This document shows, in pieces, positions 1,250 to 19,887 of a stretch of DNA of 20,000 bases. Numbering within the stretch: the stretch's first letter is position 1; each line of letters starts with the position of its first letter. The notes under the pieces were generated by a model. That model did no database searches, was not told where the DNA came from, and worked only from the letters and a program-made list of their open reading frames with translations. Origin of the DNA: an uncultured virus (IMG/VR IMGVR_UViG_3300033153_002864) (lineage: Duplodnaviria > Heunggongvirae > Uroviricota > Caudoviricetes); IMG/VR virus record IMGVR_UViG_3300033153_002864, one strand, 5' to 3'. Position numbers and translations under genes: made by a program.

Positions 1250-1284
1250 AAAAAGAGCAACCCTTAATTGGATTGCTCTTTTTT
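1250..1284. terminator. Bidirectional intrinsic terminator
   Basis: AAAAAGAGCAACCC-TTAATT-GGATTGCTCTTTTTT inverted repeat with T tracts on both strands, at the convergence of the + and - gene blocks. Confidence 0.8.
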
Positions 1285-4620: not shown

Positions 4621-4641
4621 AATATAATTTTAAATTAAACA

Positions 4642-4661
4642 GAGAGCCACAAAGGACTCTC
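4642..4661 (-). repeat. GGCTCT hairpin element, copy 2
   Basis: mRNA GAGAGUC-CUUUGU-GGCUCUC. Confidence 0.9.
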
Positions 4662-4673
4662 CATTAAAATTAA

Positions 4674-5420
4674 TTACTGTTCTATTACTACTGCGAAGTC
4701 TTTGATCAACTCGATTTCCTCGTCAATTCTCTTATCAACAGCTTCTTCAATCATATCGGCAGCATCAACGCTTTCCAAATAACATCTAAGACCATTGTAA
4801 TCAGAACCTTCAATTAAAACATTAACCTCGAATTTTGATTTCTCTTCACCTTCAAGTAATGGGAGAACTAAAGTAAATTTTTCTGGAACATTACTTTCTA
4901 AAGTTTGCTCAAAAGAACCTTTTACATTACCCCTATTGTCATCCTCAGCTTCAATGCTTTGCTTTAACTTAGCTTTGATTTGTCTAAGAGCGTTAACAAT
5001 AGATGCATGTTCGGCTTTACTTTCAAATATGCTCCTCATAAATTTCAACTTCTTAGATAACTCCATTGGAGTATATACCTTCTCTGAATTATTAATTCCA
5101 AGAGCTGTAAATTTAGAGCCTACTTTGATTGTACCAATGATTTCATAATTCCCATGAACATATTGCTCATTAAGAATTAAATTAATCCTCTTATTTTCCC
5201 TATTAACAACGCAATAAGATTTATTCTTTTCAAAATCTTCATTACGATCTTTAATAAATTTACTAGGAGAAGAAATTATTCCAGAAATACTAACATTGTC
5301 TGGATGATGCAAAGTCATTGCTGAACCTTTACGTATAACCACTTCCTTTACTCCTTCTAATACTAATTCTTCAACATGAACTACTTCCTTATCTTTATCT
5401 TTGTTTTCTTGATTATCCAT
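4674..5420 (-). CDS. Conserved phage protein, DUF2303/YfdQ-like
   Basis: 248 aa. C-terminal VPEKFTLVLPLLEG resembles the DUF2303 C-terminal pattern as I recall it. Confidence 0.45.
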   Translation of the reverse strand: MDNQENKDKDKEVVHVEELVLEGVKEVVIRKGSAMTLHHPDNVSISGIISSPSKFIKDRNEDFEKNKSYCVVNRENKRINLILNEQYVHGNYEIIGTIKVGSKFTALGINNSEKVYTPMELSKKLKFMRSIFESKAEHASIVNALRQIKAKLKQSIEAEDDNRGNVKGSFEQTLESNVPEKFTLVLPLLEGEEKSKFEVNVLIEGSDYNGLRCYLESVDAADMIEEAVDKRIDEEIELIKDFAVVIEQ

Positions 5421-5874
5421 TTACCGCCTCCTTATTAAGTGTTCTTATTTTTGCTTGGCGTTCAGTAGGTCTTATTGGTCTACTTTCAATACACTCAGCA
5501 TTTTCATCAAATACATACATAAATCCATTCTCTTGGTCATCTACGTAATACAAAGTTCCATTACGAAATTCAGACTTATGTTTAATTGCAGAGAGAAGTT
5601 CTTTCTTATCAATGTTAGGTTCTTTTAACCTTTCCTTGAAAACATCAACAGCTTCCTTCTTTTCAACTTCAATTGTATCGATACTGATACAAACATCTGA
5701 AAGCTCAGCTCGTTTAGCAGTTACTTCTTCATCTTTTAGGATTTTGGTATATCCATCCTCTTTTACATCATAGGCAAGACTCTCTAAAGTGTCTCTTCTT
5801 GAGTTTAACGGTTGTTGGGCTATATCTTCTTGATATACATCTCCGACTTCAAATTCACGTTTCTTTTCTGACAT
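5413..5874 (-). CDS. Hypothetical acidic coiled-coil protein, coupled to the DUF2303-like gene
   Basis: 153 aa, with an 8-nt overlap with the downstream gene. Confidence 0.7.
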   Translation of the reverse strand: MSEKKREFEVGDVYQEDIAQQPLNSRRDTLESLAYDVKEDGYTKILKDEEVTAKRAELSDVCISIDTIEVEKKEAVDVFKERLKEPNIDKKELLSAIKHKSEFRNGTLYYVDDQENGFMYVFDENAECIESRPIRPTERQAKIRTLNKEAVNG

Positions 5875-5900
5875 GATTTTTATTTAGGTTAATAATTAAT

Positions 5901-6314
5901 TTACTTTTTTTGCATCTTAAGAACTATGTCCAATCCACTAATGTCTAGAGTCTTGTCCATTTTATCTCCAAACATATTGTTATAGTCATCAAGCATTATA
6001 ATTGCTCTATTAAGTGCTCCTAACAATACATCATTAGATTTGGCACTTTCCAATATTTGAAGGTGTTCAAAGATAGTTTCTATATCATAACAATAAACGA
6101 AAACTTTACTAAAGCAATCACCATCATACATGACATATACTTTGTTTATTATAAATCCTTGCTTAATAGCTATTCTATTAATTTCTCTTTCAATCTCAAA
6201 TTCTATAGGCTCTTGATTTCCTGGCATTGAGAATTTAAACTTAATAAGTCCAACAATTTTTTCTTCCTTAAATTTCTTTAGTAATGGCTCTATTACTGGT
6301 TTTAAATTTTTCAT
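5901..6314 (-). CDS. Hypothetical protein
   Basis: 137-aa ORF, TAATG-coupled to the upstream small ORF. Confidence 0.7.
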   Translation of the reverse strand: MKNLKPVIEPLLKKFKEEKIVGLIKFKFSMPGNQEPIEFEIEREINRIAIKQGFIINKVYVMYDGDCFSKVFVYCYDIETIFEHLQILESAKSNDVLLGALNRAIIMLDDYNNMFGDKMDKTLDISGLDIVLKMQKK

Positions 6315-6800: not shown

Positions 6801-6829
6801 TACAGAGAGCCACTAAGTGACTCTCTGTA
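6801..6829 (-). repeat. GGCTCT hairpin element, copy 3
   Basis: mRNA UACAGAGAGUCAC-UUA-GUGGCUCUCUGUA, 13 bp with one U-G. Confidence 0.9.
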
Positions 6830-10227: not shown

Positions 10228-10247
10228 ATTATCTAAATTTTTAATTC

Positions 10248-10285
10248 AAAGAGCCACAAAGAACTTTCGTTCCTTGCAACTCTTT
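10248..10285 (-). repeat. GGCTCT hairpin element, copy 4 (long form)
   Basis: mRNA AAAGAGUUGCAAGGAAC-GAAA-GUUCUUUGUGGCUCUUU, 17 bp with four G-U pairs and a GNRA loop. Confidence 0.9.
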
Positions 10286-10290
10286 AGTTT

Positions 10291-11931
10291 TTACATTAAT
10301 AATCCTTGACCATTATCATCAAAACTTGGAATATCTTCAATATATTGAATTTCTTTAGGTTTTTCAGATTTCGGTTGAGGTTTAGCTTTTGGCTGATATT
10401 TAGCCATTTCCTCCTCATACATACCTTCTGGTAGCCAATTCTTTTGAGCTGCCGCCCTAATGTTGAATTGTTCCCATAGTTTTTTATCCTTAAACCTTAA
10501 ATGTGCTGTACCTTTCTTATAAAACTTAATTTCAAAGAACTCGCTTTCACAAGTATTATCAAACTTATCTCCTGTTTTAACTTTTCCAATCTCTTTAAAT
10601 TTAATTTGCAAAGCATCAGTCATAAGTCTAATATTATTATAGTCTTTACCTGTAATGTAGCATAATACTTTGTCTAAATCATTATACTTGTCTCTACGGC
10701 TAAATGCAGCACTAAAAGTATCTCCCCAATCTTTTAATTGCCACGCACTCATATATGCTCCATATTCAACAACTCGTGGAGCAACAAGTCTTCTGTTGAC
10801 TTTGTAGGCGTCGTTAGTTTTCCATCCTTCTACTTTCATTCTATTTTCATGAGTATAAGTAGTCAATTCATCAAAGACCTCAAGGATTGCTTTTTCAAGT
10901 ATATTTCCAGCATTCATCATAATCATTTCAAAAAATGCTTGAGTATTGTCTTTAGTAAAAGCCATTTTACTTTGTTGTTTAATAAATTTATCAAAGTTAT
11001 TAATGACTTGGCTTGACATGTACTTTTCCATATTAAGATGTGAAATTACTGTTTGCCACATTTCTCCTTTAACTTTTTGTGCAAAATAATTATACCTATC
11101 CTTATAAGTTCCTGAAGGAGTTGTTACATCTTCAAATTTGGTATATGTTCTTAATAGATTTTTTGTGTAATGAGTAAACTTAGCTTCCGCCTCCATATGT
11201 TCAACATAAGCATCTTTAGCTTTATCGAAAATATGTATTAGATTTCCTATAACATCTTTTCTTGCTATTTCATTAGTGGAAAAATCTTCTCCGATTTCAA
11301 TGTCTGGACTTTCAGAATCATTAAAATTAAAAGTAAATCTTTCAGATCTAGCTGGAACATGCACTTTTACAATAGCTATTTCTACATCAGTAGTTCTTTC
11401 AGCGTTTGTAAATGCTTTTGAATGGTATTCGACAGAACAATGTCCATCTCTTGAATACCCATCTAACAGTGCATCTAATTCCTTTCTTTTTTGACTAAAT
11501 GGATTTTTTAAAGTTTCAGCATTGAGGATGCATACAATATTTGTATCGTCTGCTATTTCGATTGCTTTCAATAAATGTTCAGCTCCATTAGAAAATGGTG
11601 GGTTCATAATAATATGATCGTAATACATATCACATTCATACGTTAAAAAATCCTCACTAACCATTTGATAATCTTTATCTTTCAAAATAGCTTGTAATTC
11701 AGGATGTTGTTCGCAAACATAATTTTCTTTATGCGCTCTTCTGCCGGTTTCTTTACATATAAAGTCTAGTATATCCCCTTTGCCTGCTGACGGCTCTAAA
11801 ATAGAGCCTTTAATAATATAGCCATCCGCATACCTTCCGTTAATACCTCCTTTATGGTATTTTCCTTTATATTGTTCTAGCATTATTTCAATAACCTCTT
11901 TAGGTGTTGGAAAAAATTCTTTATCAAACAT
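10291..11931 (-). CDS. Amino (N6A/N4C)-DNA methyltransferase fused to DUF4942-like domain
   Basis: Motifs FFPTP, LEPSAGKG and MNPPF, plus C-terminal GWKTN and FEIKFYKKGTAHLRF. Confidence 0.85.
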   Translation of the reverse strand: MFDKEFFPTPKEVIEIMLEQYKGKYHKGGINGRYADGYIIKGSILEPSAGKGDILDFICKETGRRAHKENYVCEQHPELQAILKDKDYQMVSEDFLTYECDMYYDHIIMNPPFSNGAEHLLKAIEIADDTNIVCILNAETLKNPFSQKRKELDALLDGYSRDGHCSVEYHSKAFTNAERTTDVEIAIVKVHVPARSERFTFNFNDSESPDIEIGEDFSTNEIARKDVIGNLIHIFDKAKDAYVEHMEAEAKFTHYTKNLLRTYTKFEDVTTPSGTYKDRYNYFAQKVKGEMWQTVISHLNMEKYMSSQVINNFDKFIKQQSKMAFTKDNTQAFFEMIMMNAGNILEKAILEVFDELTTYTHENRMKVEGWKTNDAYKVNRRLVAPRVVEYGAYMSAWQLKDWGDTFSAAFSRRDKYNDLDKVLCYITGKDYNNIRLMTDALQIKFKEIGKVKTGDKFDNTCESEFFEIKFYKKGTAHLRFKDKKLWEQFNIRAAAQKNWLPEGMYEEEMAKYQPKAKPQPKSEKPKEIQYIEDIPSFDDNGQGLLM

Positions 11932-11954
11932 AATTTTAGTTTTAAGTTAATAAC

Positions 11955-11974
11955 ATAGAGCCGTTAAGCTCTAT
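11955..11974 (-). repeat. GGCTCT hairpin element, copy 5
   Basis: mRNA AUAGAGCU-UAAC-GGCUCUAU. Confidence 0.9.
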
Positions 11975-11978
11975 ATTA

Positions 11979-12869
11979 TTATGCTGCTTCATTTAAAATT
12001 CCTAAATATTCAATAGCTTTAAATGCATCTTTCATTGCATCATACACTATCATTTTATCATTCTTTAAGGATGTGAGCCAAGACTGAATATAAGCTGCAT
12101 TATTATCTACAACATCACTTTCAATACCAGCTTTACTACAAAGAAATGCTGAGGTTAATTCAGCTACCAATTCTTCACGAGCATATCCTTTACTTCCAAA
12201 CTTATGATGTCCAATAATTCCATCTCTGTCCAATCTATTAGAATGTCCTGTAGAATGAGCCATTTCGTGAAATAATGTACAATAATACCCTTCGGGTTTA
12301 TGGAAGTATTCTCTATTAGGCATTGTAATCGCATCTGCTCCTGGTCTATAAAAAGCTTTTTGTCCATTGTCATGAGAATATGGTGCTACCTTGTCTACAA
12401 ACGTAGATAATAATGCATCACAACTCTCAATGGGATTGAAAACTGTTAAGTTCTCTTCTTCAAACTTCTTCTTTTCCTCTGCAAAGGGATTCTCAATACC
12501 CTCTATCTGCTCTAAATTGAATACAGTAGACTTACGTAACATTGGGTATCTTACTTCCTTACCATCAACTTCTTTCTCAATGAAACTGAAATAAATAATA
12601 GGAATACCATGCTCTCCTTTTTTTACATTACCACCCAATTCTTTGGATTGTTTGTATGTTAACCAATAAGGCGTTGCTCTATCTTCAAACATTGCTTGAA
12701 AGAAATTACAGCCTTTATAAACTTTCTTACTTATAAAATTCTGAGGATAACCGAACTGAACCGATTTCCAAGGTTTTTTCCAAGGGATTTCCCCCTGTTC
12801 TAATTTACTGACAATTTTATCAGTTAACTGTTGATATACGTCTACTTTAGTCTTCTTCTTCTTCGTCAT
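11979..12869 (-). CDS. ardC: ArdC-family antirestriction/ssDNA-binding protein with zincin-like domain
   Basis: Motifs PWKKPW, YKGCN, WLTYKQ...GGNVKKGEHG, VFNLEQ, HEMAHSTGH, YAREELVAE and YIQSWL. ATG at 12869 preferred. Confidence 0.9.
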   Translation of the reverse strand: MTKKKKTKVDVYQQLTDKIVSKLEQGEIPWKKPWKSVQFGYPQNFISKKVYKGCNFFQAMFEDRATPYWLTYKQSKELGGNVKKGEHGIPIIYFSFIEKEVDGKEVRYPMLRKSTVFNLEQIEGIENPFAEEKKKFEEENLTVFNPIESCDALLSTFVDKVAPYSHDNGQKAFYRPGADAITMPNREYFHKPEGYYCTLFHEMAHSTGHSNRLDRDGIIGHHKFGSKGYAREELVAELTSAFLCSKAGIESDVVDNNAAYIQSWLTSLKNDKMIVYDAMKDAFKAIEYLGILNEAA

Positions 12870-12987
12870 ATCCGTAAGGATTTTTAATATTATCTTCTCC
12901 ACAAGTTCCGCAATAAGCTAACTTTGGGTTCTCTTTATCTTTTCCTAAATTGTCAAGACAATTAGGACATCTTAAATCTGTTGCCAT
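12847..12987 (-). CDS. 46-aa zinc-ribbon protein with acidic tail (not in ORF track)
   Basis: MATDLRCPNCLDNLGKDKENPKLAYCGTCGEDNIKNPYGYDEEEED*. Confidence 0.7.
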   Translation of the reverse strand: MATDLRCPNCLDNLGKDKENPKLAYCGTCGEDNIKNPYGYDEEEED

Positions 12988-12989
12988 AG

Positions 12990-13379: not shown

Positions 13380-13398
13380 GTAAGTAAGTTTAATTAAT

Positions 13399-13426
13399 AT
13401 CATAGAGCCACAAAGGACTCTATGAT
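13399..13426 (-). repeat. GGCTCT hairpin element, copy 6
   Basis: mRNA AUCAUAGAGUC-CUUUGU-GGCUCUAUGAU. Confidence 0.9.
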
Positions 13427-13428
13427 GT

Positions 13429-13659
13429 TTATTTTTCAGCTTTAATTATAGGTCTTGTATCTCCTGACTCATCTACTGTTGATGCATCTCTCAATATATT
13501 TATAGCATCAGCTAAATCTTTTTGTCTTTTAGTAAGCTTAACTATAGCCTTGCTCATTTCTGCACCTGGCTTATGTTTTCCTAGAACATCTCTTATCCTG
13601 TCAAGCTCAAGCCCTATTTCTTCAAATTTCTGTTTTAATACTTGTTCTGGATATATCAT
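13429..13659 (-). CDS. Hypothetical coiled-coil protein
   Basis: 76 aa, ATGA-coupled to ThiF. Confidence 0.7.
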   Translation of the reverse strand: MIYPEQVLKQKFEEIGLELDRIRDVLGKHKPGAEMSKAIVKLTKRQKDLADAINILRDASTVDESGDTRPIIKAEK

Positions 13660-14411
13660 AATTTAATAGGTTTAGTGTTGCAAGTTTTAAGATTAACAAA
13701 TCCTCCTTGATGAGAAATAACATACTTAGTTAATAAATCCCAAATAAGGTTCATACCTGTGCTAACCAAAACTGAATTGATAAATAAATCTTGTTTTAAT
13801 AGTGCTTCCCTGGTACTACAACTTGGAGTACTAATATCCTCATTTTCTTCCATATTTGGAAATAAACTAAAAACATTTTTAAGGATAGATATTGTTTCAT
13901 ATTTAGAATTAGGCTGCTCAATCAAAGCAGAAGCCAAAACAAACTGACCAAAATCTTTACCATTACCAAAATCTAACCAGTAGTACGATTTTTGATAATC
14001 CGTTTTCATTTCAGAGCATGAAATATAAGCACTATGTATCTCTTTTCTTGTCTTAACATTATCAACACAAGAAATTATGATATTAGTACCTTTCCATTCA
14101 TCACTAAACTTTTTTGGTATTGCTACCCAATCAAGTCCATAAAACCTATTTAATCTAGTAATCATAACAGAAGCTTTATAATCTCCCAAATCTTGAGGGG
14201 AAAACTTCTGTCTACCAATATTAGGCTGCTCTACTATATCATCATCAATAGCTTGAACATGTAAACCAGGATGATCTAATTCTAATAAGCTACAATGTAT
14301 TTTTGCTAAGTCGTTTAAGACTTGCGTTCCATTACCACCTACACCAACTACTGTTACAGTAATTGGATGTAATGGCTCTATAAAATATTGTGGGGCATAG
14401 TGTACTTTCAT
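13656..14411 (-). CDS. PRTRC system ThiF/E1-like activating enzyme
   Basis: Motifs VVGVGGNG, DDDIVEQPNIGRQ, SCVDN, YWLDFGN, PSCS (candidate catalytic Cys) and QDLFIN. Confidence 0.9.
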   Translation of the reverse strand: MKVHYAPQYFIEPLHPITVTVVGVGGNGTQVLNDLAKIHCSLLELDHPGLHVQAIDDDIVEQPNIGRQKFSPQDLGDYKASVMITRLNRFYGLDWVAIPKKFSDEWKGTNIIISCVDNVKTRKEIHSAYISCSEMKTDYQKSYYWLDFGNGKDFGQFVLASALIEQPNSKYETISILKNVFSLFPNMEENEDISTPSCSTREALLKQDLFINSVLVSTGMNLIWDLLTKYVISHQGGFVNLKTCNTKPIKL

Positions 14412-14686
14412 AATGTTGCTTTATTAATTGCTATATCCATTACTTGTTGAAGCTCTATTTCACTCCTATGTTCCTTTTTTATTCCAAGATTGTAAATTAT
14501 AGTTTTAGCTTCTTTTAACGCATCTAACAAGTCAGGTGCAGCAGCTATTAGTTTTAAATTAGCTTTAGCTTCTTCCCCTTTACTAATTGGATTTTCTTGA
14601 AAAACTTTTGCTATAGCAAATTCATTTGATTTTGGTGTAATCCAAGAATCATTTATAACCCACTTTCCTTCTGTATGTTTATTCAT
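14408..14686 (-). CDS. Small conserved phage hypothetical protein
   Basis: KHTEGKW...ANLKLIAAAPDLLDAL pattern, common in small phage ORFs. Confidence 0.7.
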   Translation of the reverse strand: MNKHTEGKWVINDSWITPKSNEFAIAKVFQENPISKGEEAKANLKLIAAAPDLLDALKEAKTIIYNLGIKKEHRSEIELQQVMDIAINKATL

Positions 14687-15375
14687 AATAAATCCTCCAC
14701 TGTTTTGTTAATATCCAACAATACACTCCTATCAAAGAGTTTCTTGCCTTTAATTTGTTCATTAATAAATGTGTTCAAGTTTCCCTTTATAGGGCTACCG
14801 CCTGATTGTAAATGACTGAACTTAGACATAAAGAATCCATCTTCCCAGCCTTTCATCAATTTCTTGACATTGGTTGATTTGATAACTCTTGAATTTCCCA
14901 TACATACACCACCATTATCAAAAATATTGTGAAATGGAGCTCTGTATAGCTTTGTTTTTTCAGTAACATTATTTGTTTTAGCCGCATACATACTTAAACC
15001 ATTACCTTTCAGCTTGAATACGAGTGTAGGCAAGTGCATCACTCCATCTTTAATTCCCAATCCTTTTGAAAAGGTTAAGTTTCTATTTGATGACTTGATA
15101 TACCATATCATATTGGCTTCAACATTTTTGTTACTGTAGTGTAATAGATTTTTGGGTAAGAATCCTTCGCAATTTATTTTATGTAATTTTTGAGGATCTA
15201 TTTCCTCTAGCATACCTCCTAATAATTTTTTAGTCAAAGGAACTCCCTCTAACATTTGATAGCAATTATTCTTATTTACAATTTTTCTTGATTCGAGGTA
15301 ATTTTGACCTCCATCTTGAGAGTAAACAACAATAGCTACACTTGGTATAAAATCTTCTTTAATTAAATCATTCAT
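14683..15375 (-). CDS. PRTRC system protein B (prokaryotic E2 family D-like)
   Basis: Motifs LPKNLL, LPTLVF, LYRAPFHNI..GGVCMG (candidate Cys) and WEDGFFMSKFSH. Sits upstream of ThiF. Confidence 0.85.
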   Translation of the reverse strand: MNDLIKEDFIPSVAIVVYSQDGGQNYLESRKIVNKNNCYQMLEGVPLTKKLLGGMLEEIDPQKLHKINCEGFLPKNLLHYSNKNVEANMIWYIKSSNRNLTFSKGLGIKDGVMHLPTLVFKLKGNGLSMYAAKTNNVTEKTKLYRAPFHNIFDNGGVCMGNSRVIKSTNVKKLMKGWEDGFFMSKFSHLQSGGSPIKGNLNTFINEQIKGKKLFDRSVLLDINKTVEDLL

Positions 15376-15385
15376 ATTTTAAATT

Positions 15386-15412
15386 TACAAAGAGCCGATA
15401 AGGCCCTCTGCA
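15386..15412 (-). repeat. GGCTCT hairpin element, copy 7
   Basis: mRNA UGCAGAGGGCC-UUAUC-GGCUCUUUGUA, 11 bp with three G-U pairs. Confidence 0.85.
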
Positions 15413-15413
15413 A

Positions 15414-16535
15414 TCATTCATTCAGATAATTAGTTAATGTTTGTAATTCATTCATCATACTTGTATATAAGAATGGATTATCACTAAATTCTTTTTCTTT
15501 TTCATTAAAGATTACATCTCTAAAAGGAGATGTGCCACCTTCATTCCAACAAGAAGTCATATACATACTAACATCTGAACCAATCCAACCTCCTTCATCA
15601 TCTAAAGCCCATCCAAAATATGAATAACATGCTGGTGTCAAAGGTGTGTGATATTCTTCTTCACTTAAAAAAACAAAACTATAATTATTAGGGTTTATCC
15701 CCATGTTCATAGTGTCTATTACATTTTTAAATGTTTCAATACATCTTCTTTCGATTGTGTTTAATGGTTTAAATTCATTTATTAAACCTTTAAACTCTTT
15801 CAACGAAACTGTATTTCCCTTTATCTCTGCTTGTAAAGAAGCTAGAAATTCAGATTCATTCATTGCATCTTTTATATTATTGATTTCTTCTTTATCAAAA
15901 TATTTAGGATCGCTTATAGTTTCTTCAACTCTTTCAGAAATTTGGTCAATAGCCATATCGTGGAAATGATTATCCCACCACATAGCATTACCTCTTCTAA
16001 AAGATAATGAAAGGAACATAATGAATAGATTGTTTATTCTTTGATAATCTTTGTGACTTTCTTTTGTATAAAGAAAACGGAACTCAGGACAAGTATTCTC
16101 TTCCGGTATCGGATAGTCTATTGACCTTATTAAAATCCATTTATCTCCATATATTAAACTCCACTGTTCATCAGCATACAATTCCTCGTAACAACTTAAC
16201 ATCCAATGTAAAAAATCAGCCTCATCAGTATTTTCACTGAAATTAGGCTGCATAAATATTGAAATATCATCTTTTATAATAGGATAAATATCCTTTATAA
16301 CTTGAGAAAGACTGTCGTTAAACAGTCCTTCCCCAATCATAGATGATAATTTAATATTATTTATACTTTTTAAACTATTGGATGTAAGAAAATTGACATT
16401 GGCATTACTCGCTCCCTTTTTTCTTCTACCCCTTGGGATATGTTTGATTTGGTTTCGCTTAATATCAATGATGCTATTGATTGATGAAAACTTTTGTCTA
16501 TTGGTTCTATTTTTCTTTTCTTTCGTTCTTTGCAT
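15414..16535 (-). CDS. PRTRC-associated protein (position equivalent to protein F); start uncertain
   Basis: 373 aa, between protein C and protein B. Basic N-terminal 50 aa followed by an acidic body. Assignment by synteny only. Confidence 0.5.
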   Translation of the reverse strand: MQRTKEKKNRTNRQKFSSINSIIDIKRNQIKHIPRGRRKKGASNANVNFLTSNSLKSINNIKLSSMIGEGLFNDSLSQVIKDIYPIIKDDISIFMQPNFSENTDEADFLHWMLSCYEELYADEQWSLIYGDKWILIRSIDYPIPEENTCPEFRFLYTKESHKDYQRINNLFIMFLSLSFRRGNAMWWDNHFHDMAIDQISERVEETISDPKYFDKEEINNIKDAMNESEFLASLQAEIKGNTVSLKEFKGLINEFKPLNTIERRCIETFKNVIDTMNMGINPNNYSFVFLSEEEYHTPLTPACYSYFGWALDDEGGWIGSDVSMYMTSCWNEGGTSPFRDVIFNEKEKEFSDNPFLYTSMMNELQTLTNYLNE

Positions 16536-16564
16536 ACGAATTTATAGAATTGATTTGCGTTCAT
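16370..16564 (-). CDS. Possible overlapping small ORF (64 aa)
   Basis: ATG is coupled to the upstream TGA (ATGA). Overlaps the 373-aa ORF by 166 nt in another frame. Confidence 0.4.
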   Translation of the reverse strand: MNANQFYKFVCKERKKRKIEPIDKSFHQSIASLILSETKSNISQGVEEKRERVMPMSIFLHPIV

Positions 16565-16773
16565 AAATTATCTATTTTACTAAGTTTTGTAGCTTGTTCT
16601 AAGAAATAGCTATATACTTCTGGTATATGTTTTTTATAATAAGGTTGTTCTGACATACACCATTTTTTTAGGTCTGCCTTGTCTTTAAATGTTACAAAAG
16701 GAAATGTAACTTCAAGCTCATCAATAAAGTTTTGAACTGTCCATCCTTCCCAAATATGTTTATCTTTTCCCAT
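16561..16773 (-). CDS. Hypothetical protein
   Basis: 70 aa, following repeat copy 8. Confidence 0.75.
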   Translation of the reverse strand: MGKDKHIWEGWTVQNFIDELEVTFPFVTFKDKADLKKWCMSEQPYYKKHIPEVYSYFLEQATKLSKIDNL

Positions 16774-16789
16774 AATATAGTTTTAAAAT

Positions 16790-16813
16790 TCAGAGAGCCA
16801 TAAAGCTCTCTGA
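16790..16813 (-). repeat. GGCTCT hairpin element, copy 8
   Basis: mRNA UCAGAGAGCU-UUAU-GGCUCUCUGA. Confidence 0.9.
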
Positions 16814-16820
16814 TTGTTTT

Positions 16821-17054
16821 TTATAATAAAGTATCTGTTTCAATCTTTTCATATTGAAATTCCCCTTCTCCACTATATCCTTGTGTTTGTTCTAAATTAC
16901 CTAAGTTCCATTCTTGGTCACCACTAATTTCATAACCTTCTGCTTTTGCTTTTTCTTTACACAAAAGCATTGCATAAGCGCGATCAGAAGCAAGACCTAT
17001 AATATCTCTTGAGGCATAAGAATGATGTCCATCAGTTTTATAAACCAAAAACAT
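16821..17054 (-). CDS. Hypothetical protein
   Basis: 77 aa, starting 3 nt after the protein C stop. Confidence 0.75.
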   Translation of the reverse strand: MFLVYKTDGHHSYASRDIIGLASDRAYAMLLCKEKAKAEGYEISGDQEWNLGNLEQTQGYSGEGEFQYEKIETDTLL

Positions 17055-17057
17055 AAT

Positions 17058-17261
17058 TTAACCTTTAGTTCCTACTGATGTAGAAAATTCATAAACCAAC
17101 TTATCATTCTTTACAGTTGGTCCTGTTACGTGAGCATTTGTTAACTCGGTATATTGATTAGAATAGAAATCAAGAACATTGTCTTTCGACATTTCTCTAT
17201 TCGGATCCTCTAATTCAATATCTCCATGTTTAAATACTCTTTTTAATTCAGTTACTTCCAT
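17058..17261 (-). CDS. PRTRC system protein C (ubiquitin-like)
   Basis: LKRVF...LEDPN..MS...VLDFYSNQYTELTNA.VTGP...YEFSTSVGTKG, ending in a C-terminal Gly. Confidence 0.9.
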   Translation of the reverse strand: MEVTELKRVFKHGDIELEDPNREMSKDNVLDFYSNQYTELTNAHVTGPTVKNDKLVYEFSTSVGTKG

Positions 17262-17262
17262 C

Positions 17263-18393
17263 TTATCCTAATATTTCAATGTGATCACTTGCTGATGGCC
17301 TTGGCGTTTCAGCTTTAACTTCTGGTATTGGCACTACTTTATCTGCTTCAAATTCAGCTTCTCTTTTAACCATATCTTCTCTAGCCATTTCTTCCATAGG
17401 AGACATTTCTTCTACTATTGGAGTTGGAGCTACAGTTTCAGCGATAGGTGGATTATGTTCTCTCCAAGTTGCTAATCTGATTTCATAATTCTCCATAGAT
17501 TCTAAATCTAATCTCTTAGGCTTAGGCTGTCCTTTTAAATCATTAGCAACAAACGCTTCTGCTATTGGAATAGGATTCTCTTGTATATGTTTAACCCTAT
17601 TTTGATATTCAATATCACTTTCTACATGAGCAACTATAGGTTGTTCAGCCTTTTGCTGTTCTCCAATAGCTACTTCCTTCATAGATGTAGGTGCAGCAAG
17701 TCCAGCTTCCGTTAACGCATCTTGAACTTGGTTAACCTCATCTTTAGATTCAGCTCCTAATATTACTGGAGTTTTATCAGCTAAAGTATTTGGAATATGA
17801 CTTAAATCAACTAAAGGTTTCTCTGCAATAGCAGTAGGTTCAGATGCCATTACAACTTCTACCATTTCTTCCTTAACTTGTTCTACCAATTTAGCTTCTT
17901 CTTTAGGAACAAACATACCTTCCGCTTTAGGAACAAGTTTGTCCATTAAATCAAGAGCTTTCTTATATTCAGGTGCAACTTTCAATGCTGCTTTCACTTT
18001 GAGAATAGCTTTCTTAGTTTCTTCCTTTTCAATAAGAGCTTCAGCTTCTTTAATATACTTATCAGCTTTATCTGTAAGTTTCTTGTCTGCATCTTTTTTA
18101 GCTTTAACAATAGCAGTCTTTTCTGCCTGTATCTCTACATTTTTCTCGAATTGAACTAAATTAGTTGATATTCCAGAAACTTTTTGTAATGGCTGTTGAA
18201 TAATACCCGCAAATTGGGCGTCTAATTCTTCAGCTGTACCTTTTAATAGAATAGGTGTTAAGCTCTTCATTGCATCATCCTTACAAGTAGGTTGAGGCAA
18301 TACTGAAACTGTAAGACCGTTCTCATTTTTACTAATAACAACATTGAGGTTTAATCCATCTAAATGCTGCTCAATACTTTTAAAAAAGCTCAT
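17263..18393 (-). CDS. PRTRC system protein E with long acidic extension
   Basis: N-terminal FF..I...LTVSVLP...LTPILLKGTAEELDAQF, then a TPR-like helix pair and an E/P/A-rich tail. Confidence 0.85.
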   Translation of the reverse strand: MSFFKSIEQHLDGLNLNVVISKNENGLTVSVLPQPTCKDDAMKSLTPILLKGTAEELDAQFAGIIQQPLQKVSGISTNLVQFEKNVEIQAEKTAIVKAKKDADKKLTDKADKYIKEAEALIEKEETKKAILKVKAALKVAPEYKKALDLMDKLVPKAEGMFVPKEEAKLVEQVKEEMVEVVMASEPTAIAEKPLVDLSHIPNTLADKTPVILGAESKDEVNQVQDALTEAGLAAPTSMKEVAIGEQQKAEQPIVAHVESDIEYQNRVKHIQENPIPIAEAFVANDLKGQPKPKRLDLESMENYEIRLATWREHNPPIAETVAPTPIVEEMSPMEEMAREDMVKREAEFEADKVVPIPEVKAETPRPSASDHIEILG

Positions 18394-18411: not shown

Positions 18412-18441
18412 ATACTAAAGAGCCGCAAAGCTCTTTAATAT
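18412..18441 (-). repeat. GGCTCT hairpin element, copy 9
   Basis: mRNA AUAUUAAAGAGCU-UUGC-GGCUCUUUAGUAU, 13 bp with two U-G pairs. Confidence 0.9.
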
Positions 18442-18444
18442 ATT

Positions 18445-19728
18445 TTAAGTAAATAAGATTCTTCTAAAATTCTTAGAACGCAATACTATTTTCATAAGCC
18501 TTTTCATAATATTATACATATTACTGTTTCTATTATGAAGTAAGCCTATTAATACTACTGATTCTAAATCCTTATCAGAAAGTACATCAATATTAGTATT
18601 GAAGATTAGTTCTTTTACATCTGGTATTATCTCAAAATCTCCTTTTAAAGATACCGCTATAGAGAAATCACAAACCTTATCATATTTATTAAGAATCTTA
18701 TTAATCCTTTTTTGTAATTCAGGATTAGCAACTTCTTTATAAATCAGTTTTGATTCATTATAACCACTTCCTGAAGATCCATAATAACCTTGACCACTTC
18801 TTGTTGTTATTTTTTCACAAGGTAATTCACACTTCTCTAAAATTGTATATAATTCCATTGGAACATATACAGCTCTATCTTTAGCTTCCTTATTAGATTC
18901 TGGATGTAAAAATAAATAGCCTTGAAATAATTCCTTAACTATTTTAGGTTCATAATCTGCTGAACTAAAGTAAAGACTACTCTTCTCAATAACGTTACTA
19001 ACCTCACTATTGTTGTACATTTCAAGGTATTGCTTAACTATCTTTCTATTTGAGTTAAGTATAGCAGTAGGTATATCTCCATTGATAAAACCTCTATACT
19101 GTCTTAACTCATTTAGCTCACAATCTTTAAAATCATAATTGAAATAAGAGTTGTAATGACTCTTGCCATCTACCAATACATTGTTTTTATATACTTTCAA
19201 TGAATTGTGCTTTACTTTTTTGTAGATGGAAAATTTGTTATTTTGAAATATTGGTACTTCTGCATTAAAATACAGATTCCATTTATCATGAACTTTCTGA
19301 ATATCCTCATCCATTTCAATATAAAATGTAGTAGCTCCGGCTTTACCTTTAAGTTTACTTCTGCCATCAATAGCTTTAGCACTGGCATCTTCTTCATCAA
19401 TAGCATTACACCATATCTCTCTAAGTATTTCCCAGGCATTCCATTGGTAACCATATTCAGTAGTAATATTCATAGAATCTCCATTACAGAAAATTTCTTC
19501 TGCAGAGATCCCTTTAATATTTACTGGCTCAGTTACAAACATTACCTCTTCTTCTCCAATAAAAACCTTGAAGTTATTCGTTGTTCTTAACAAGTAGCTA
19601 ATAGCATATTTCAATCCTGTACCAAATTGTCCAATTTTGTTGCTATCACTTGTTTTCGTACTTGCTCCAATGAGCTTTAACAGTCTTACATCAAGTAGAC
19701 CTTTGTTTTGAATTTTTAAGTATTTCAT
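18445..19728 (-). CDS. GHKL (HATPase/Hsp90-like) ATPase domain protein
   Basis: Motifs IQNKG, IGASTK...IGQFGTGLK, LREIWCNAIDE and GATTFYI in the N-terminal 140 aa. Confidence 0.75.
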   Translation of the reverse strand: MKYLKIQNKGLLDVRLLKLIGASTKTSDSNKIGQFGTGLKYAISYLLRTTNNFKVFIGEEEVMFVTEPVNIKGISAEEIFCNGDSMNITTEYGYQWNAWEILREIWCNAIDEEDASAKAIDGRSKLKGKAGATTFYIEMDEDIQKVHDKWNLYFNAEVPIFQNNKFSIYKKVKHNSLKVYKNNVLVDGKSHYNSYFNYDFKDCELNELRQYRGFINGDIPTAILNSNRKIVKQYLEMYNNSEVSNVIEKSSLYFSSADYEPKIVKELFQGYLFLHPESNKEAKDRAVYVPMELYTILEKCELPCEKITTRSGQGYYGSSGSGYNESKLIYKEVANPELQKRINKILNKYDKVCDFSIAVSLKGDFEIIPDVKELIFNTNIDVLSDKDLESVVLIGLLHNRNSNMYNIMKRLMKIVLRSKNFRRILFT

Positions 19729-19754
19729 ATAATATGTTTTGGGTTAATATCAAA

Positions 19755-19786
19755 GAGCCACAAAGAACGCAAGTTCTCTGTAGCTC
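19755..19786 (-). repeat. GGCTCT hairpin element, copy 10 (long form)
   Basis: mRNA GAGCUACAGAGAAC-UUGC-GUUCUUUGUGGCUC, 14 bp with two G-U pairs. Confidence 0.9.
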
Positions 19787-19887
19787 AATGACCTCCTTCA
19801 CCCAATTTCTTTTTTTCGTCCATTGAAACGGACGATAACAGCCACTATAGAACATTGCTCATTCTTTGCACGTTCCATAGTTTGGTG

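Follow-up and report, generated by a model that had tools for sequence, protein, structure and literature searches.

The closest described counterparts of the element reported here are the PeSL cassettes of T4-type phages. Two reports (Arbiol et al. 2010, PMC2839356; Comeau et al. 2014, PMC4122927) describe PeSLs as cassettes of ~100 bp that flank variable genes and indels and contain both a Shine-Dalgarno sequence and a host sigma-70 promoter. We analyzed a 20,000-nucleotide stretch of DNA from an uncultured virus (IMG/VR record IMGVR_UViG_3300033153_002864; hereafter the window), in which a hairpin at 10248-10285 is one of ten intergenic copies of a real family of RNA-level elements. As in PeSLs, to the extent that those reports describe them, a small conserved cassette present in multiple intergenic copies combines a stem-loop, translation signals and the next start codon, and copies flank indels and gene replacements between close relatives. 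The cassettes differ from PeSLs, as described there, in being 45-60 nt long, in having neither a host -7 box nor a Shine-Dalgarno sequence, and in containing an invariant, strand-specific 12-mer. With middling confidence, we read the copies as the hairpin half of a 45-60-nt intercistronic cassette of hairpin plus leader, analogous to PeSLs, in a long co-directional operon. The copies have a strand-specific, covarying fold and a characteristic position, and they are linked to indels. Their molecular role, which may be insulation or stabilization, attenuation, or that of an operator, we infer from these features.

To our knowledge, little is known of how polycistronic mRNAs are divided in Bacteroidota and their phages. 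The cassette offers a compact testable unit that combines an invariant 12-mer, an RNA hairpin specific to one strand and a fixed A-rich leader. If its role in exchange holds, the PeSL idea of mobile regulatory cassettes would reach beyond T4-type coliphages into another phylum whose signals differ. Any sequence-specific reader of the element, if there is one, would be a new regulator. The family is absent from Rfam and from the literature searched, where we found no description of this hairpin cassette: Rfam (cmscan, E<=1) gave just two weak matches, neither at a cassette, and a tRNA scan gave nothing at the cassettes.

The window is 31% G+C, and nearly all of its genes lie tightly packed on the minus strand. 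Pfam and PHROGs identify an ExoVIII-like nuclease, a Sak4-like ATPase, an HU-like protein, DnaB, a DUF4942 methyltransferase, ArdC and a PRTRC set (ThiF, E2, Ub and PRTRC_E). The last forms a full PRTRC-type cassette of PRTRC_E, Prok_Ub, Prok-E2_D and ThiF at 13429-18393 (minus strand), adjoining ArdC, the orphan DUF4942 methyltransferase, DnaB, Sak4 and the ExoVIII-like nuclease. We take the combination of ArdC, orphan methyltransferase, RadC and PRTRC to resemble the leading region of a plasmid or ICE, yet IMG/VR lists the contig as viral. The DUF2303 protein (4674-5420) is 27-39% identical to proteins of Flavobacterium, Bacteroides, Phocaeicola and Cellulophaga phages. The methyltransferase is 100% identical in IMG/VR contig L001 (= G001), which shares 71% of sampled 31-letter words of the window. 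The best DNA matches to the locus are metagenome runs from marine sediment and cold seep, X1 and X8 among them, and no close DNA relative of the window was found in the phage and plasmid collections searched. We take the source to be an uncultured phage, or phage-like mobile element, of Bacteroidota. The ArdC-like ORF was called from a GTG at 12902, and its true start is probably further upstream: the apparent gap before it (12903-12989, minus strand) holds an in-frame, zinc-ribbon-like CPNC...CGTC stretch.

The hairpin first flagged (copy 4, 10248-10285, minus strand) has the form AAAGAGTTGCAAGGAAC-GAAA-GTTCTTTGTGGCTCTTT, with 16 pairs of which 4 are G.U. It sits between the stop codon of the methyltransferase gene (10291-10293) and the start codon of DnaB. 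Its invariant 12-mer (CTTTGTGGCTCT, 10250-10261, minus strand) lies wholly within the 3' arm, and an A/U-rich start region with no Shine-Dalgarno sequence (GAATTAAAAATTTAGATAAT, 10228-10247, minus strand) abuts the DnaB ATG at 10227-10225. The nine sister copies are also on the minus strand. Copy 1 (2377-2412) has a c-UUCG-g loop, with the upstream stop codon 83 nt away and the next ATG at 27 nt. The 5' edge of copy 2 (4638-4665), at 4665, is both a strain-variant joint and a homology breakpoint. Copy 3 (6801-6829) shows a compensatory change from CAGAG/CTCTG to CAAAG/CTTTG in orthologues. Copy 5 (11948-11981) precedes the DUF4942 methyltransferase gene, and copy 6 lies at 13396-13429. Copy 7 (15385-15413) has three G.U pairs and opposes a CAGAG-type 5' arm to a CTTTG-type 3' arm. 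Copy 8 (16790-16813) has a stem of Watson-Crick pairs only and a strain-variant joint at 16810; copy 9 (18412-18441) precedes the PRTRC_E gene, with a strain-variant joint at 18448. Copy 10 (19750-19792) is a long form whose 3' arm, GTTCTTTGTGGCTCTTTGA, it has in common with copy 4; on the plus strand the two share the 19-mer TCAAAGAGCCACAAAGAAC.

The 12-mer CTTNNNKGCTCT matches ten times in the window against 0.43 expected, every time on the minus strand, in an intergenic region and in the sense orientation of the genes. Its GGCTCT core occurs 22 times in the window (4.73 expected), a count reached in none of 200 shuffles.

We sought relatives by pattern and protein scans of IMG/VR and by one pattern scan of metagenome contigs. 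The same cassette and gene module occur in G002-G005, L128, L152, L158-L161, L165, L168, L176, L181 and L184. All relatives carry the same gene module and are not independent. The metagenome stretches that matched the pattern (n=54) are mostly chance matches without a hairpin. In the more distant L132 and L133, and in some G004 and G005 copies, TGCTCT or TGCTCC replaces GGCTCT; these variants still have the hairpin and a CTT three nucleotides upstream of the altered core. A MAG contig with a 45%-identical methyltransferase (L003) was set aside, as it has no cassettes and just unrelated hairpins. In L161, two cassettes at 1178 and 1519 (sense coordinates) lie ~340 nt apart with no ORF after the first, which may be the scar of a lost gene module.

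The original prediction held that the repeat folds only on the mRNA strand, where departures from a perfect palindrome are G.U pairs, four in copy 4 and three in copy 7. To count these departures, stems were extended with Watson-Crick, G.T and A.C pairs all allowed, so that detection is equal for both strands. The 39 unique copies counted come from the window and relatives after removal of one spurious coding-region match; copy 10 (19754) is missing, skipped by the script with a stem one base short of the full GGCTCT. In the nine window copies scored there are 16 G.U pairs and 2 A.C, and both A.C fall in outer AT-rich extensions that RNAfold leaves unpaired. The predicted counts for copies 4 and 7 (the latter scored at 15391) were recovered, and copy 10 adds two G.U by hand count on its RNAfold structure. 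All 39 copies together have 405 Watson-Crick, 62 G.U and 5 A.C pairs. By our estimate, base composition would give about equal frequencies of G.T and A.C; the excess has a binomial p of ~1e-13, which overstates independence because the copies are kin.

Folding energies agree with the pair counts. As RNA, the ten window copies average -16.9 kcal/mol on the sense strand and -11.0 kcal/mol on the antisense strand, the sense strand gives the more stable fold in nine of ten, and RNAfold energies range from -12.5 to -24.7 kcal/mol. With DNA parameters the gap narrows (-7.7 sense versus -6.1 antisense). Covariance model R1 scores sense copies at 42-57 bits and antisense copies mostly at ~20 bits, with an antisense maximum of 37.9 bits among near-palindromic copies.

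The predicted covariation of the outer stems was also recovered, with the variants AAAGAG/CTCTTT, CAGAGAG/CTCTCTG and ATAGAG/CTCTAT all present, as were the predicted cUUCGg and GAAA loops and the sequence held in common by copies 4 and 10. Aligned, the 22 copies whose loop is 6 nt long show pairing in 94.2% of cells; four pairs have changes on both sides, and 20 cells are changed on both sides versus 6.1 in shuffles. The alignment has a covariation score of 0.336; shuffled versions score 0.207, none of 500 equals the observed value, and slid registers score 0.04-0.12. Some copies are hybrids of two outer-stem types, and their arms meet at columns 8:27 as G.U in five sequences and unpaired in one. 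Hybrid arms that are mostly G.U are what selection on an RNA helix predicts. Since the fold is selected on the sense strand, the hairpin most likely acts in mRNA.

This strand preference weighs against the idea that the repeat is a single-stranded-DNA element, used for priming or attC-like recombination on a displaced or lagging strand, or else a selfish MITE- or REP-like repeat spreading to gene starts. Gene indels do cluster at cassettes, and the sense strand is slightly favored with DNA parameters too, but the asymmetry is much larger as RNA than as DNA. The hairpin promoters of the phage N4 virion RNA polymerase and of plasmid Frpo form on the template strand and are read as single-stranded DNA. 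The cassettes are likewise short conserved hairpins upstream of mobile-element genes; however, they fold on the non-template (sense) strand, leave A.C mismatches on the template strand, and have stems too short for a promoter. The cassettes share with integron attC sites an imperfect, strand-specific hairpin set between co-oriented genes that are exchanged as units, but the hairpins here are much shorter and without R''/R' core sites. We rejected an attC-like site: of 39 copies, one has GTTRRRY and none has RYYYAAC, and no integrase domain is present in the window, where no HUH nuclease was found either.

The REP/BIME sequences of enterobacteria and the intergenic RNase III sites of T7 are transcribed, operon-internal imperfect palindromes that shape mRNA stability and processing. 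REPs, which are chromosomal and linked to RAYT transposases, are found in both orientations; the helices of T7 RNase III sites are longer and contain internal loops; neither kind has a start region fused to it. The cassettes resemble both as repeated imperfect palindromes within an operon, but all ten copies have one orientation and the window contains no transposase domain. No copy was found outside this gene module in the IMG/VR and metagenome contig scans, and covariance model R1 matched four of 151 Bacteroidota genomes, once each and always at terminator-like sequence. We consider a single-stranded-DNA or selfish element highly improbable, and give it the least credence of the readings discussed here.

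Translational starts in Bacteroidota and their phages involve no Shine-Dalgarno pairing, and the cassettes are placed as a unit before such starts. In 28 of 37 copies the stem starts -3 to 8 nt after the stop codon, and in 30 of 36 the ATG lies 20-25 nt beyond GGCTCT (median 22). Where the upstream spacer is long, in copy 1 and its G004 orthologue, the hairpin is still beside the downstream ATG. Anchored on the ATG, A is found at -11 in 35/35, at -12 and -10 in 28/35 each and at -3 in 21/35, T is at -1 in 34/35, and G is nearly absent from -18 to -1. The A-rich pattern also precedes 17 cassette-less genes whose upstream sequence is coding (A at -10 in 12/17, at -12 in 11/17). It fits the initiation determinants of F. 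johnsoniae, which one study gives as A-3, A-6, A-12, A-13 and an unstructured region from -20 to +20 (PMC6847099). On both counts, the A/T block is a ribosome start region and not a promoter element. A similar start region at the hairpin-less junction 5875-5900 indicates that the hairpin is not needed for initiation as such. Cassettes precede about a third of the genes in the replication/anti-restriction module (DnaB, ArdC, orphan methyltransferase, PRTRC).

An element-specific promoter, at which a phage sigma factor or RNA polymerase would recognize the 12-mer and A/T block and produce very short leaders, would make the cassette a terminator-promoter composite like a PeSL; in favor of it, the intergenic regions across some 18 kb of co-oriented genes have no host-type -7 box. 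The Bacteroidota -7 box, TAHHTTTG (PMC6847099), occurs 14 times in the window versus 22.3 expected, with no match in a cassette or any intergenic region. A host sigma-A promoter in the cassettes is thus ruled out. Cassettes do travel with the downstream gene, and PeSLs are described as such composites (PMC2839356, PMC4122927). However, the A block keeps a fixed place relative to the ATG while its distance from GGCTCT ranges over 6-12 nt, and it recurs before genes with a coding upstream region. G.U selection shows that the hairpin itself is transcribed, and neither the window nor its relatives show an RNA polymerase or sigma gene. We therefore think a promoter of this kind very unlikely. A leaderless-mRNA promoter is unlikely as well, as the A block also stands before cassette-less genes and its distance from the hairpin varies.

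The stems resemble intrinsic terminators in their GC core, purine-rich 5' arm, pyrimidine-rich 3' arm and A/T-rich flanks. They differ in a U tract that is weak or interrupted, in the fixed distance to the ATG, and in a GGCUCU that is invariant even at the cost of U.G pairs. The earlier suggestion that these are not typical strong terminators is supported by a terminator scan of the sense strand, which called one of ten copies (copy 10), and by downstream tracts of 4-7 T in the 9 nt after GGCTCT. Copy 1 has the 7 T; most tails have 4-5, interrupted by G or A. A canonical intrinsic terminator at 1250-1283 (minus strand), with a 14-bp stem and the tail TTTTCTTTT, ends the minus-strand gene block. 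It is bidirectional, at the meeting with the plus-strand ORFs at 148-1213, and its arms (AAAAAGAGC.../...GCTCTTTTT) resemble cassette arms.

A reading of the copies as leaky terminators or attenuators that grade transcription along the operon, with sequence conservation reflecting mere shared ancestry, would draw on the GC core stem, the upstream A-run, the partly U-rich tail, the call at copy 10 and the tail of copy 1. The Bacteroidota host terminators matched by R1 (L188-L191; AAAGAGTCC-TTTC-GGACTCTTTTTTTTT) have arms close to those of the cassettes, nearly equal, but with full T tracts and perfect pairing. PeSL stem-loops were reported to be effective terminators when measured (PMC2839356). 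Against this, nine of ten sense-strand copies fail the scan, the terminator at 1250-1283 with its long T tract shows that the element uses strong terminators where wanted, and a terminator would need neither an invariant 12-mer nor a fixed ATG distance. On balance we regard this reading as doubtful. Because host Bacteroidota intrinsic terminators look similar, partial attenuation of transcription by the hairpins is possible. Among runs recorded as RNA, none contains the locus, and two runs labelled metatranscriptomic (X20 and X21) gave only short, low-depth contigs on which RNA ends would not be visible.

The likeness to PeSLs extends to gene exchange. In DNA runs X1 and X8, related strains supply variant contigs that are joined across whole genes: a joint from 10289 to 11941 drops the methyltransferase gene, and one from 18448 to 19739 drops a 427-aa gene. 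Further strain joints link 4665 to 5936 and 16810 to 17060, and loose contig ends at 10289, 11981 and 4665 are all cassette edges. In BLAST comparisons with eight relatives, 22 of 84 block ends lie within 20 nt of a hairpin. Among distinct breakpoint clusters the count is 8 of 45, in a zone that makes up 3.6% of the window, a modest enrichment for which BLAST alignment ends are a crude proxy. For L128, which is 91-97% identical, three of five block ends are at hairpins.

Gene content at individual cassettes agrees with this. The cassette at 11948-11981 is followed by the methyltransferase in the window and by a different, 120-aa gene in G004, and G003 and G005 have neither this cassette nor a methyltransferase between ArdC and DnaB. 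Beyond the cassette that follows the 373-aa gene, relatives carry an extra gene of 120-154 aa that is absent in the window. Cassettes mark the boundaries of exchangeable gene modules, staying at the junction while neighbors come and go. At 10668-11116 of L123 (G004), a cassette variant with TTGCTCT directly precedes the gene for a 134-aa protein that the window lacks and that has an I-HmuI NUMOD-like endonuclease domain; this gene is possibly a homing-endonuclease insertion at a cassette.

In the hairpin-plus-leader cassette, the stop codon is followed by the stem-loop, then by an A/U-rich start region that has no Shine-Dalgarno sequence, and then by the ATG. By closing off what lies upstream, the hairpin would let the unstructured start region of ~20 nt function anywhere. 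It could also provide a stable end for mRNA segments, and perhaps weakly attenuate transcription. The shared 45-60 bp of DNA would offer homology for module exchange, as in T4-type PeSLs. Insulation or stability gives no reason for an invariant GGCUCU in which structure-neutral changes are avoided.

This invariance is one of two constraints named in the original prediction: a fixed directional sequence, and a variable arm that sequesters it. In the 22-copy alignment, 3' arm columns 21-26 are invariant and the three inner pairs never vary. The 5' arm does vary: column 13 is U in 12 copies and C in 10, column 14 is U in 3 of 22, and other register types have G at other positions. The 3' arm shows none of the changes that would be neutral for pairing or improve it, such as G to A opposite U or C to U opposite G. 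CTT lies exactly 3 nt 5' of GGCTCT in 37 of 39 copies in any stem register, and falls variously in the loop, at the closing pair or in the 3' arm. Both constraints are evident in these copies. Because the 3' arm and the CTT-N3 spacing stay fixed whatever the stem register, CUUNNNKGCUCU appears to be read as sequence, beyond the fold, by a candidate reader.

Other parts of the prediction fared less well. No copy was said to have the perfect complement AGAGCC in its 5' arm; this is true of the window (0 copies) and fails in relatives, where six copies have it, or seven if L158_1174 with its 5' arm AGAGCCC is counted. The proposed avoidance of perfect symmetry is contradicted by these arms and by four stems in which every pair is Watson-Crick, including that at 16794 in the window. 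A proposed sRNA partner with the complement was not found in the window beyond the cassettes' own opposite strand. Two features came in addition to the prediction: the fusion of each hairpin to a start region at a set distance from the ATG, and the coincidence of cassettes with boundaries of gene exchange.

The reader could be a sequence-specific RNA-binding protein or endoribonuclease, of phage or host, with the hairpin as its operator controlling translation or processing of the cassette genes and the 5' arm hiding or presenting the motif. An invariant 3' arm and CUU opposite a 5' arm that varies through wobble pairs would suit such an operator, as would a sequence and CTT-N3 spacing that are constant in loop or stem. 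Relative to the ATG, the hairpin stops near -17 to -20, which would be the edge of the 30S-covered region, and with 0-8 nt from stop to stem a terminating ribosome would open the 5' arm. But Pfam and PHROGs name no candidate RNA-binding protein in the window, and no Rfam family matches; we judge this account decidedly unlikely.

A broader version would make CUUNNNKGCUCU the operator of an undescribed RNA regulon, bound by a specific protein or ribosome-associated factor, in phages of hosts that do without Shine-Dalgarno sequences. The wobble-paired 5' arm would mask the 3' arm until the stem is opened by a ribosome that terminates 0-8 nt upstream, each module's expression or processing would be coupled to translation of the preceding gene, and the cassette would double as a universal joint for swapping anti-defence and replication genes between phages. 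That all of these hold together is unlikely.

One resemblance to a ribosomal sequence is probably coincidental. The 5'-terminal helix of a Bacteroidota 16S rRNA (L187, 1507-1527; gagtt-tgatcct-ggctc) and the cassette core (GAGUY/GGCUC) have five equal stem pairs, including U.G wobbles. The stem is only 5 bp, and R1 gives no match there at E<=10. GGCTCT also occurs outside the cassettes, in 12 copies within genes and on both strands, against ~4.7 expected for all copies. Examples are at 2120, 6208, 7535, 9671 and 11792/11803, often as TAGGCTCTA, and codon usage or a DNA motif may account for this over-representation. At 11792-11808, inside the methyltransferase gene, GGCTCT forms a small palindrome, GGCTCTAAAATAGAGCC.
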